Positions 8,045 through 12,144 of a DNA stretch of 64,000 bases are shown here, piece after piece. The notes below the pieces were generated by a model. That model made no database searches, was not told the origin of the DNA, and worked only from the letters and a program-made list of their open reading frames with translations. Numbering within the stretch: the stretch's first letter is position 1; every line of letters starts with the position of its first letter. Source of the stretch: Moniliella sp. 'wahieum' (Eukaryota); NCBI GenBank assembly GCA_003971905.1, contig RSEE01000012.1, positions 248,001 through 312,000 of the forward strand, given 5' to 3'. The position numbers and the translations under genes were made by a program.

Positions 8045-9702
8045 TCAAAGCGGTAGACGCTGGCTAAAGTACTCTTCGCCAGCGCAATGCACCGCACGTT
8101 GGCGCCCAGCTTGTTGATCGTCTCTTGGTACTCGTCCTCCTCCACACTGTCGTACACAATCCCCCCGCCCGCCTGGAGAGAGACGACGCCGTCTTTGTAC
8201 GTCATCGTCCGGATCGCAATGGCCACGTCCATTGCGATCGGCATAGCCCATGTGGCCCACCGCGCCAGCGTAGACGCCGCGACGCTCCTGCTCCAGCGCG
8301 CCAACCAACTCGATGGCGCGGATCTTGGGCGCCCCCGAGACGGTTCCGGCAGGGAAGATGGAGCGGAGCGCATCGAACCGGTCCTTGCCCTGCGCACTGG
8401 CCCGTGATGCGCGAGGTGAGGTGAATCACATGGCTAAACTTTTCCAGTTGCATAAACGACTCGACTTGGGTCGTGTGCGGATCGCATACCCGACTAATGT
8501 CGTTCCGGGCCAATCGACCAGCATCACATGTTCCGCTCGGTCCTTGTCGCTCTCAGCCAAGAGGCGCGACTGCGCCTCGTCCTCTTCGGCTGTTGCGCCG
8601 CGCTTGACGGTGCCAGCGATCGCGTGGACAGCCACCTTGCCCTCCACGATCTTGCACAACGTCTCGGGACTGGCACCAATGATCTGGCAGTCCCCCACAT
8701 CGAGGTAGTACATGTACGGGCTTGGGTTGATCTGGCGCAGTTGGCGGTAAATGTTAAATGGGTGCACGTCGGTAGGCCGTGTGAGACGTTGAGAGGGGAC
8801 AGCCTGGATGATCTCGCCCTCGGTGATCGACTTGCGCAGGCAGTCACAAAACCCTCGTAGCCGGCCTTGCCGACGTTGCTGGTAGCCTCTCTGCCGAGCT
8901 GGATGGGGCCTTGCTTGGGCATAGGCAACGGGCCAGTCTCAAGCACTTTGCTTGCCACGTTGGTGACCTTGGCCACTGCCTCGCGTACCGCCTCGCCACT
9001 TCCTCGGGCGTGTGCGGTGCATCGCTAGGCAAGTAGACATGCGACACACATGCAATGCTCTGGAACACACGGTCAAAGATCAAGGTCGTGTCGCAAAACA
9101 TGTACACCGACTCGGGGATGCCCAGTGGATCCTTCAGTTCGCGCGCAGTGCGAGGCTCAAAGTAGTGAACACAGTCGTATGAAATGTAGCCCATTCCGCC
9201 GCCTGGAGACCGAAAAATGGTGCGAGGTCCGTGTCAGCCTGGACAGACAACAAAAAGAAAGAGAGAGTGGGGGGGGGGGACGAACCGGTAAATAAGGGCA
9301 GTTTGGCCAAGGGGATATACTTGTACTGCTCCAGTTCGGCTTTGATGTGCACCAACGGGTCCCCCTGCAGAGGCTGGGTGGGGCCGGTGCGGAGAACCTT
9401 GTAAGGGTCCACACCGACAAAGCTATACCTCCCAATGTTCTCTCCGCCCGTGACCGACTCGAGGAGGAATCCGATCCGGCCCACGTCGGCACCGTCCGAC
9501 ATGCGCAGGTAGGCCGTGACAGGCGTCAGCAAATCAGCAGGCAGGGATTGGTAGATGGGAATGATGTTGCCCTGGGCGGGGGTGGTGGGCGTGCCGAGCA
9601 GCGCAGCCTGCACCTCTGGCAGGCTGGGGTAGATGTCCTGGAGAAGGGTGGGGTCAGTGGGGAAAAGGAGGGAGGTGGAGGGGGATAGCACACCTGGCCC
9701 AT
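8045..9702 (-). CDS. TRP2: Anthranilate synthase component I
   Basis: [95 protein letters not shown]. Introns ~9640-9693 and ~9202-9287. Confidence 0.93.
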
Positions 9703-9713
9703 GTGTGGTGGAA

Positions 9714-9755
9714 GGCGGTGGTGGTGGTGGTGGTGGTGGTGGCGGCGGCGGCGGT
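9714..9755. repeat. (GGT)n(GGC)n microsatellite just upstream of the TRP2 start
   Basis: ggc(ggt)8(ggc)4ggt read directly from the sequence. Confidence 0.9.
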
Positions 9756-10117
9756 GTGTCGAGGGTGTCTTCCCTCCCGGAGTTTCTCAGGGAGCTCTTT
9801 AGTCAAGCGGACATGAGTCCGTCTCGAGTCAAAAACGGGCGGAATTGTGGCCTGCTGCTGCGCTGACGGGCTGGTCAGACGTCCCATGTCAAACGGCAAG
9901 TTTCAAATGGCAAATGGCAACTGTCAGATGCCCAAGGTAATGCCAAGCCTCAAACTTTCAAGCTCAAGCTTCAGCTTCAATGTCAATCGTCAATCTGCAA
10001 CATTGCAGCCCCCGTGGTTACTGATTCCGCCCTGAGTTCTTCGCGCCGCCTCGGCTGTTCTCGACACCACCCGGCCAGGCCCCCACACCCAGGCCAGCCG
10101 AGGCGCCGCCAGCCAAC

Positions 10118-10676
10118 ATGCCGTGCGTACCTTGGCCCCATCCCCATACATCCCCTGGGGCCATGCTAACCCCCCTCCCAGGCTGTACGAGCTGTTCTGC
10201 GTCGCTGCCTACTCGGCCCAGTCGGCGCCGCTGCGGACGCTGCTCTCCAACACCTCCAACACCATCATCACCAATGGCGGTGTGGTGCGGGGGATGCAGT
10301 ACTGGGGACGCCGTCTGCTGCCCCAAACTATGAAGCGTAACCAAGTCACGCATACCGAGGGGGAGTAAGTACTAAGTATCCCGATCACATTGACCTGGCG
10401 AATGCGCTAGCTGGCGGCTGGCTGGCTGGTTGACTGGCTGGCTGCCATATGGCTGGACCTGGGCCGGACGTCCAACTAACCCCCGTGTTCGTGTTCCGTG
10501 TTCTCAGCTACTTTATTATGCAAGTGGATACCAACCCCACCACGCTGAACCAGATTCGGGCGCGTATGCGCTCCGATCCGCGCGTCTTGCACTTCACCCC
10601 GCTCCGGTTGGGACGCAAGGTGAGTGAGGTGGTACCGTCTCCCTTCCCCACCCGCCTGGTGGGCCCGTGGGCTTAG
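10118..10676 (+). CDS. MRP17: Mitochondrial ribosomal protein bS6m
   Basis: Spliced product MPLYELFCVA...GGVVRGMQYWGRRLLPQTMKRNQVTHTEGDYFIMQVDTNPTTLNQIRARMRSDPRVLHFTPLRLG fits the bS6 pattern. Introns ~10123-10181 and ~10365-10508 have CTAAC branch sites. Confidence 0.85.
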
Positions 10677-11205: not shown

Positions 11206-11675
11206 TCACTTTTTCTTGCCCTTTTTGGACGTTTTGACCACTGTTGCACCACGGGTTGCCTCGGTACCGCCCGACATCCAGTCCAAGTCTTTCAGCAAAC
11301 GCAAAGTCATCCTGGGAGAACTTTTCTGGAACCGACCCAATTGACCCTCCATGTCGACCGCGACGCCCAACGCATTTGAACGTTCCGCCAATGGGTTCCA
11401 CAGCGGGTGGTTCGTCGGGTCCCGCGTCAACCGCATCGCCGCACGAGGAGACGGGTAAAGACATCAATCGACGATCCATCGTTCAGCACGATCGTCATGG
11501 GGAACTTGGATACGGGGCGGGGGGTATGCAACTTGGTTGGCCTGCCCATTTTGGCTGAGCTAGCAAAGGAACGCACCAGTCCCAGTCCTACGCCCGTACT
11601 GGAGCCAAGGTGAGGACGCCGAGCCAACGTAGAAAACGCACGGGCCGGTCCGCCTGATCCGCCCGTTGTACCCAT
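11206..11675 (-). CDS. MRPL36: Mitochondrial ribosomal protein bL31m (Mrpl36-like); possibly the C-terminal part of a fusion with Mzm1
   Basis: FPMTIVLNDGSSIDV...MRLTRDPTNHPLWNP...EGQLGRF matches the fungal bL31m N-terminal pattern (xxSDGS...L.RD..NHPLWNP); basic C-terminus KKGKKK. Contains frameshifts. Confidence 0.75.
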
Positions 11676-11685
11676 GCCACCGGCA

Positions 11686-12144
11686 CTACACCCCCCCGCC
11701 GCAGCATCCCACCCCAGAACTGGCGAGCTTCGAACTAGCCTTCTTGATATCTTCGTTGTTGCCCAGTTCCGTGTCGGGGGTGATCTTCAGCCCTGCACAC
11801 ACGTTCGCGTCACGTCAGTACTCCAGTGGTGCAGCGCCCAACAAGGCCAAACAAGACAGGTGCTGTGTCCACTCACGGTACGCGCCTGTCGTTTCTTGGC
11901 GAACACCTTGGACAATGTTTTGGCGGAGAGAAAGCGCAGTCCTTCCTCCCATTCCTGTACCTTGGCCGCAAACGCATCCTCGCCCGGGGGCAGGCGGCAG
12001 GGGCTGTTGGAACTGGGACCGAACGTGGCGGTACCACCCCGAAAGCGCACTGGGGTCGCCGGCAAACGTGACGTGGCCCTGCTTGAGTGCGCGGCGGTAG
12101 AGGGAGAAGACAATGTGGCGCTGCGGAGGCGTGAGGGCAGCCAT
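11686..12144 (-). CDS. MZM1: LYR-motif protein Mzm1/LYRM7 (Rieske protein chaperone, complex III assembly)
   Basis: SLYRRALKQGHVTFAGD (LYR motif plus FxGD), LRQNIVQG, and after intron 11793-11876 (GTGAGT...CTGAC...CAG) YRLKITPDTELGNNEDIKK, the characteristic Mzm1 C-terminal motif. Confidence 0.85.

Follow-up and report, generated by a model that had tools for sequence, protein, structure and literature searches.

Two mitochondrial proteins, the complex III chaperone Mzm1 and the mitoribosomal protein bL31m, lie so close together in the genome of Moniliella sp. 'wahieum' that the question arises whether they are made from one gene or from two. The locus is found on the minus strand of a 64,000-nt stretch of DNA (contig RSEE01000012.1 of assembly GCA_003971905.1, positions 248,001 to 312,000), hereafter called the window, to which positions refer unless stated otherwise. 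In the assembly, a spliced Mzm1 frame crosses a run of seven G (G7) and meets a stop codon (TAG 11688-11686), and an ATG (11675) sits 10 nt past that stop in the bL31m frame. The original prediction read this arrangement as a Mzm1-bL31m polyprotein that is cut after import, by which complex III assembly would be tied to mitoribosome supply. Our analysis suggests that Mzm1 and bL31m almost certainly share a single open frame, and that the gene as a whole probably specifies a tandem precursor, Mzm1-linker-bL31m, which would be cut in two inside mitochondria. Given the single frame, conservation within the linker makes such a cleavage quite likely.

The coordinates originally proposed for the start, intron, G7 run, TAG, ATG 11675 and final stop on the minus strand were all correct. 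Shortening the G run by one base or lengthening it by two does join the frames as had been anticipated, since among run lengths of 4 to 10 only 6 and 9 keep the frame open into bL31m. A search of the genome (69.5 Mb, 223 contigs) revealed four matches to the gene stretch, namely the window itself, a second copy (C31) 77% identical to it over nearly the full gene, and two matches, on C5 and C27, to the bL31m part only. In the C31 copy, the Mzm1 tail runs through the linker into bL31m with neither a stop nor a G7 run. Alignment of the spliced window gene to that of C31 uncovers six frame-breaking indels within 855 nt in the window copy and four in the C31 copy, at other positions. The proportions of nonsynonymous (pN) and synonymous (pS) differences between the two copies are 0.083 and 0.416 in exon 1 (85 codons), 0.038 and 0.571 in the core of exon 2 (22 codons), and 0.207 and 0.521 in the linker (31 codons); by this measure, purifying selection acts between them. 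Because five more indels fall within the same 855 nt, because C31 has four, and because the copies appear to be under purifying selection, the TAG that follows the G run is most likely an assembly error. With the six indels undone, the gene would encode a precursor of ~285 residues.

Read evidence was drawn from one public run (X1, kind not on record, share 0.06), three contigs of which lie over the gene stretch; the parts of the gene outside their cover carry no information. Contig 2, which is 202 nt long with a depth of 2.7, is spliced over the intron, extends to 11610 and has one base fewer at 11692. As read, it provides 67 stop-free codons from exon 1 through the first linker motif, in exactly the frame predicted by the homologues. 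It resembles the window copy at 95-99%, and its letters differ from the window at 11690 and 11691. Compared by eye, contig 3 has loose ends that correspond to C31 sequence across the intron of that copy. The junction is open as well, with both linker motifs present, in the close relative P0199. The suspicion that the stop is an artefact is supported by the open C31 copy, the one-base-shorter G run in contig 2 and the open frame of P0199.

Profile comparisons were used to identify the two halves. A profile of the fused proteins (A1) matches a named Mzm1p of Naumovozyma with an expectation value (E) of 2.6e-17 (positions 1-108) and LYRM4 chains far more weakly, at 2e-4 only; its C-terminal part matches bL31m of yeast (3j6b_V, E 2.2e-12) and of Neurospora (6yw5_V, E 2.6e-12). 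The Mzm1 assignment, which comes from one-way profile matches, is accompanied by Mzm1-type features: a LYR domain, NVVQG and TELG motifs, and, at the end of the first part of exon 2, a GCC ending that is the tail of many stand-alone Mzm1 proteins. In Pfam, PF05347 exceeded its cut-off in four of six fused homologues scanned and bL31_N in two, the other four scoring below it. The same scan gave no match for the Mzm1 fragments of the window or for the C31 exon, so that for these divergent pieces the Mzm1 identity rests on the profile. The AlphaFold model of the Ustilago protein P0012 has a confident three-helix LYR part and an overall predicted TM score (pTM) of 0.31, with a predicted local distance difference test score (pLDDT) under 50 at residues 135-184, around the linker motif. 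Foldseek returned nothing at E 0.001 or better for the whole P0012 model, the top weak rows being ISD11 and yeast bL31m. Mzm1 is described as the chaperone of the Rieske protein Rip1 for complex III (PMC4381221), and bL31m is located in the central protuberance of the mitoribosome (PMC5683760).

Proteins with Mzm1 and bL31m in one chain, which the original prediction had proposed to seek in relatives, proved to be common. Of 330 candidates, 52 matches were longer than the bL31m domain, and all 52 carry Mzm1 motifs upstream of it, 42 of them with the whole LYR domain. The 25 that bear an organism name all fall, judging by their genera, within the Ustilaginomycotina. Fused genera comprise Ustilago, Sporisorium, Kalmanozyma, Melanopsichium, Pseudozyma, Testicularia, Thecaphora, Violaceomyces, Malassezia, Exobasidium, Ceraceosorus, Tilletia, Microstroma, Parajaminaea and Sympodiomycopsis, with Tilletiaria added by a separate name look-up. 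Public databases already contain these proteins, with names that were assigned automatically. Together with the C31 copy, the spliced read-through contig and P0199, this subphylum-wide conservation backs the proposal of one Mzm1-bL31m polyprotein. When 1.84 billion representatives were searched with the profile, 1688 matches reached E 0.001 or better, the best 150 of which were taken up; among 196 proteins collected, 56 match both halves, 72 Mzm1 only and 68 bL31m only. Several short Mzm1-only matches look like gene calls of exon 1, since the match ends at the intron position. Among the 20 collected proteins whose organism names were looked up, stand-alone Mzm1 is represented by Naumovozyma and Spathaspora and stand-alone bL31m by Kockovaella and Phakopsora; a close-homologue search for bL31m yielded 4 proteins from 30 candidates, too few for mapping the stand-alone forms.

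In a Mzm1 tree of 46 rows, unrooted and built without other LYR families, a branch with support 99/91 separates the 19 fused rows from all others, and the window groups with Tilletiaria (96/91); the C31 branch is lengthened because the tail of its row is out of frame. This tree fits a single origin in the Ustilaginomycotina, most likely one fusion event at the base of the subphylum. The bL31m tree was not used as support, its backbone being unresolved and two of the eight window pieces out of frame; a stand-alone Phakopsora row fell inside its open group.

The linker, predicted to be disordered, is 11 to 94 residues long in the fused proteins as delimited here and aligns poorly apart from one set of columns, R-x-F/Y-S-T, whose Arg and Thr are at least 90% conserved among 24 aligned homologues. 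The two RxF(S/A) motifs first noticed in the window linker are indeed present, RAFST at 11642-11628 and RSFAS at 11573-11559. A broad form of the motif occurs in the linkers of 52 of 58 fused-type proteins (45 in its strict form) and nowhere in 13,657 residues outside the linker, and shuffled linkers (2000 shuffles) contained it in 4.55 cases on average and 14 at most. Of the six linkers in which it was missed, four belong to Tilletia proteins that lack the Arg; the other two are a boundary artefact and a near-match. The site consensus published for the mitochondrial processing peptidase (MPP) by Woellhaf et al. in their study of Atp25, [R][AFR][FLY][AKLS][HSTQ] (PMC5063612), fits 31 of the 58 linkers and nothing outside them. 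The earlier suggestion that MPP cuts the linker finds its backing in this conservation of the motif.

In the window, Asp and Glu are absent across 58 residues from the G run into bL31m. Over the fused proteins, they make up 3% of the linker, compared with 13% and 12% of the two domains, and Ser plus Thr account for 35%; the corresponding values for the first 35 residues of stand-alone bL31m proteins (n=29) are 0.6% and 32%. In composition, then, the linker resembles presequences, and it is most likely a former bL31m presequence retained after the fusion. The segment between the two window motifs is amphipathic (hydrophobic moment 0.75).

The two bL31m-only copies of the genome agree with each other at 95% identity across 10 kb and share with the fusion gene only the 347 nt of bL31m (80-81%); no Mzm1 profile match was found in the 10 kb examined for each. 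Relative to the window, the C27 copy has a pN of 0.037 and a pS of 0.68 (107 codons). The C5 copy begins with a 35-residue leader that ends in RTLAT at the position of the second linker motif, and C27 has a short gap at the ATG position of that leader. These copies would go back to a duplicate from which Mzm1 was lost and in which a presequence was either retained or formed anew. A short tandem repeat lies upstream of the C5 copy (L003:2400-2530) and is missing from C27.

We propose that the first helix of Mzm1, which is basic and amphipathic (net charge +4.6, moment 0.78), would direct import of the entire precursor without being cleaved off. Once in the matrix, the precursor would be cut by MPP two residues after the conserved Arg of the linker motif, and Icp55 may then trim the exposed Phe or Tyr, as described for Arg5,6 (PMC8734313). 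The cut would free Mzm1, with a short tail, for chaperoning the Rieske protein of complex III, while bL31m could join the central protuberance of the mitoribosome. The uncut protein would have a mass of ~31 kDa; for three homologues, precursors of 28-35 kDa are computed to give products of 14-17 kDa and 14-18 kDa. In the window lineage, the two motifs could let the segment between them be excised, as in Atp25.

Several points weigh against this scheme. The MPP cut is one that we infer. The main doubt comes from Friedl et al., according to whom internal MPP cutting requires a strong N-terminal presequence (PMC8734313); no cleavable presequence is seen here, and there appears to be neither room nor a motif for one, the median start of the LYR motif being position 14 and the cleavage motif being absent from the first 40 residues in all 43 proteins. 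In many relatives, there is no textbook presequence before the linker motif either, this region being Arg/Lys-poor (just 4% in the preceding 15 residues) and weakly amphipathic (hydrophobic moment 0.42 in the preceding 20 residues, against 0.52 in stand-alone presequences). The -2 Arg is absent in the four Tilletia proteins. The broad motif was composed after inspecting the alignment, a looser R-x-[FYL]-[SA] pattern also has 31 matches outside the linker, and the 58 proteins are not independent, many being close kin (Ustilaginales). As to the frame, the reads show read-through in a single contig with a depth of 2.7, the kind of run being unrecorded, and such a contig can err; it may also come from another strain, since two further bases differ from the window. 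Finally, the bL31m tree does not resolve a single origin.

The chief rival explanation is that the fused protein stays whole, or largely so, and tethers a LYR chaperone to the central protuberance through bL31m. Both the missing -2 Arg of Tilletia and the lack of the N-terminal feature that Friedl et al. found necessary would fit such a protein. Moreover, the Aco2-Mrpl49 fusion of Schizosaccharomyces pombe is dealt with as a single protein, which co-precipitates with proteins of the large subunit (PMC8258696), and LYR proteins are found on assembly intermediates of the mitoribosome, AltMIEF1 chains being among our structure-database matches. However, Mzm1 and bL31m are separate proteins in other fungi, and the low pTM of the P0012 model gives no sign of a joint fold. 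An uncut protein is also hard to reconcile with a linker of such variable length in which the motif is the sole conserved element, as if read by a protease. We regard a lasting fusion as improbable and the cleaved precursor as the better account.

The remaining explanations are weaker still. The fusion could be real in the lineage and the window copy a dead duplicate whose stop is a true mutation, as the density of frame-breaking indels, the second fused copy and the two stand-alone bL31m copies might suggest. Both fused copies would then have to be dead, because C31 has its own four indels and two protein searches of the genome found no further clear Mzm1 copy (remaining rows at E 0.015 or weaker). 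Since pN lies far below pS between the copies, and a contig so similar to the window copy is spliced and in frame, we consider this very improbable. An equally slim chance is left for a locus that yields the fusion plus Mzm1 or bL31m alone, by way of alternative splicing, premature polyadenylation or initiation at an internal codon. The window shares with C31 and P0199 an in-frame Met at 11549 that could provide such a start, yet the resulting protein would be without a targeting segment, the stand-alone copies have Leu in place of this Met, and the spliced contigs seen all use the one intron. Two separate genes, a dicistronic mRNA or a programmed frameshift on the G run, the latter two also entertained in the original prediction, are largely refuted and retain scarcely any credibility. 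A stop does precede an ATG by 10 nt in the assembly, but the stop, the G7 run and the ATG are all absent from C31 and unreflected in P0199, and all 52 longer homologues read as single frames. A conserved stop, slippery run or second start was looked for in C31, P0199 and these 52 homologues and was not found. Slippage on the G run was rejected, as the run is absent from C31 and the relatives read as single frames. ATG 11675 was likewise rejected as the bL31m start, there being no Met at that place in C31 or P0199; 31 of the 58 fused-type proteins have no Met within the 30 residues before the first motif.

The Mzm1-bL31m precursor is best placed with the mitochondrial tandem (composite) precursors, such as Atp25, Arg5,6 and Rsm22-Cox11, and would work as they do: two otherwise independent mitochondrial proteins lie in one frame with, at their junction, an R-2 motif that has an aromatic residue at +1. 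Like Atp25 of Saccharomyces cerevisiae, composed of an Rsf and an M domain (PMC5063612), it joins a mitoribosome-acting protein to one of oxidative phosphorylation biogenesis and has, in the window, a possibly targeting-like internal segment flanked by two candidate MPP sites. Unlike Atp25, it has other partners and its ribosome-related part is C-terminal; moreover, a cleaved N-terminal presequence and proven cleavage are reported for Atp25, whereas Mzm1-bL31m appears to lack such a presequence and its cleavage is predicted. Fungal Arg5,6 offers a conserved fusion, an R-2 junction site with an aromatic +1 (RSY) and predicted Icp55 trimming (PMC8734313). Its two parts share a pathway and a complex, unlike Mzm1 and bL31m, for which no shared complex is known, and its internal cut is described as dependent on a strong N-terminal presequence (PMC8734313). 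Rsm22-Cox11 of S. pombe likewise combines a mitoribosome-related protein with a respiratory-chain assembly factor in a precursor split after import (PMC4381221, PMC8734313); it differs in order and partners and is described for fission yeast, whereas Mzm1-bL31m spans a basidiomycete subphylum. In Aco2-Mrpl49/bL21 of S. pombe, a matrix protein is also N-terminal to a large-subunit mitoribosomal protein (PMC8258696), although the two fusions have no sequence in common and Aco2-Mrpl49 is treated, in the passages that describe it, as one fusion protein. Predicted fusions of LYR proteins to other mitochondrial proteins, e.g., insect LYRM4-C12orf65, were compiled by Angerer in 2015; the nine fusions of its Table 2 do not include Mzm1/LYRM7-bL31m, the LYRM7 entry being a CS-domain fusion in Dictyostelium (PMC4381221). 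Nor does the pair figure in the fusion lists of PMC8734313, PMC8847149 and PMC4381221 Table 2, and no published description of it was found in the literature searched, which excludes most subscription journals.

The features of the locus are collected in Table 1. Its neighbours are a gene of the ribosomal protein S6 family (10036-10676, plus strand), convergent with the Mzm1-bL31m gene, and a gene for anthranilate synthase component I (8844-9802, minus strand); neither was matched within 10 kb around the C31 copy.

Table 1. Features of the Mzm1-bL31m locus in window coordinates, with the stand-alone bL31m copies
Feature	Position	Strand	Evidence or remark
Mzm1-bL31m gene, two exons	12144..11206	-	ATG at 12144, final TGA 11208-11206
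Exon 1, Mzm1/LYRM7 LYR domain from start codon	11877..12144	-	Mzm1-part profile of A1, E 3e-12
Spliceosomal intron, 84 nt, GT..AG, branch-like CTGAC near 11817	11793..11876	-	Spliced out in contig 2 (run X1)
Exon 2 first part, Mzm1 C-terminal TELG motif and GCC ending	11698..11792	-	Profile match E 2.4e-4
G7 run 11697-11691 and TAG 11688-11686, likely one-base assembly error	11686..11697	-	Contig 2 of X1, C31 copy, P0199
Linker, Gly/Ser/Thr/Arg-rich, candidate internal targeting/cleavage segment	11550..11685	-	Acidic residues absent
Candidate MPP site 1, RAFST	11628..11642	-	Motif scan; equivalent Arg and Thr conserved in homologues
Candidate MPP site 2, RSFAS	11559..11573	-	RSFAT in both C31 copy and P0199
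bL31m (MrpL36) domain through stop codon	11206..11549	-	Pfam bL31_N fragment match E 0.003, below cut-off
Window-copy indels	Near 11985 and 11933 (exon 1, mutually cancelling), G run, near 11453, 11327, 11291 (bL31m)	-	Alignment to C31
Stand-alone bL31m duplicates, non-syntenic site	C5 L003:1501-1949; C27 L004:1501-1943		Purifying selection

Other proteins joined to Mzm1 were met during the searches. An RF-1 match was obtained in 6 of 19 Mzm1 proteins scanned, all Agaricomycotina gene models (Serendipita, Calocera, Fomitiporia, Phlebiopsis, Exidia, Mycena), and PF00472 in six of the nine matches of a longer-protein search with the Mzm1 alignment, one being named C12orf65-like by its source. 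Longer Mzm1 matches thus number at least nine, as this search took only proteins of 283 residues and up, with 8000 candidates scored. The gene models that join Mzm1 to an RF-1/C12orf65-type release factor, either as true fusions or through alternative splicing, are P0088, P0141, P0156, P0162, P0172, P0192 and P0201-P0206; the broad motif precedes the GGQ loop in only 2 of 14 Mzm1-release-factor gene models examined. In P0108 (Ceratobasidium) and P0109 (Rhizoctonia), Mzm1 is followed by RSYST and ~550 residues without a Pfam match, which could be a third tandem partner or merged models. The gene model P0207 (Candida oxycetoniae), which lacks the linker motif, combines Mzm1 with a Tpt1 2'-phosphotransferase and is possibly merged.

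Natural mitochondrial tandem precursors are few, about half a dozen being listed (PMC8734313, PMC5063612, PMC8847149), and why a mitoribosomal partner is frequent among them is stated as an open question (PMC5063612). As a speculative extension, which we hold to be unlikely, Mzm1 might have been recruited more than once in Basidiomycota as the N-terminal carrier of a mitoribosome-related protein, namely of bL31m in Ustilaginomycotina and, independently, of C12orf65-type proteins in Agaricomycotina gene models. Import of the chain by the uncleaved LYR helix of Mzm1 would then suffice for an internal MPP cut, with no need of a cleavable presequence, and the fusion would have been selected for a one-to-one supply of Rieske chaperone and large-subunit protein, or for ribosome docking of an uncut fraction. 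The Mzm1-bL31m pair has been retained throughout a fungal subphylum to which Ustilago and Malassezia belong, and database entries labelled only Mzm1 conceal the bL31m gene of these fungi. With natural controls in the separate genes of other fungi, the stand-alone bL31m duplicate in the genome and a lineage that lacks the -2 Arg, the pair would offer a direct test case for the need of a cleavable N-terminal presequence in internal MPP cutting.
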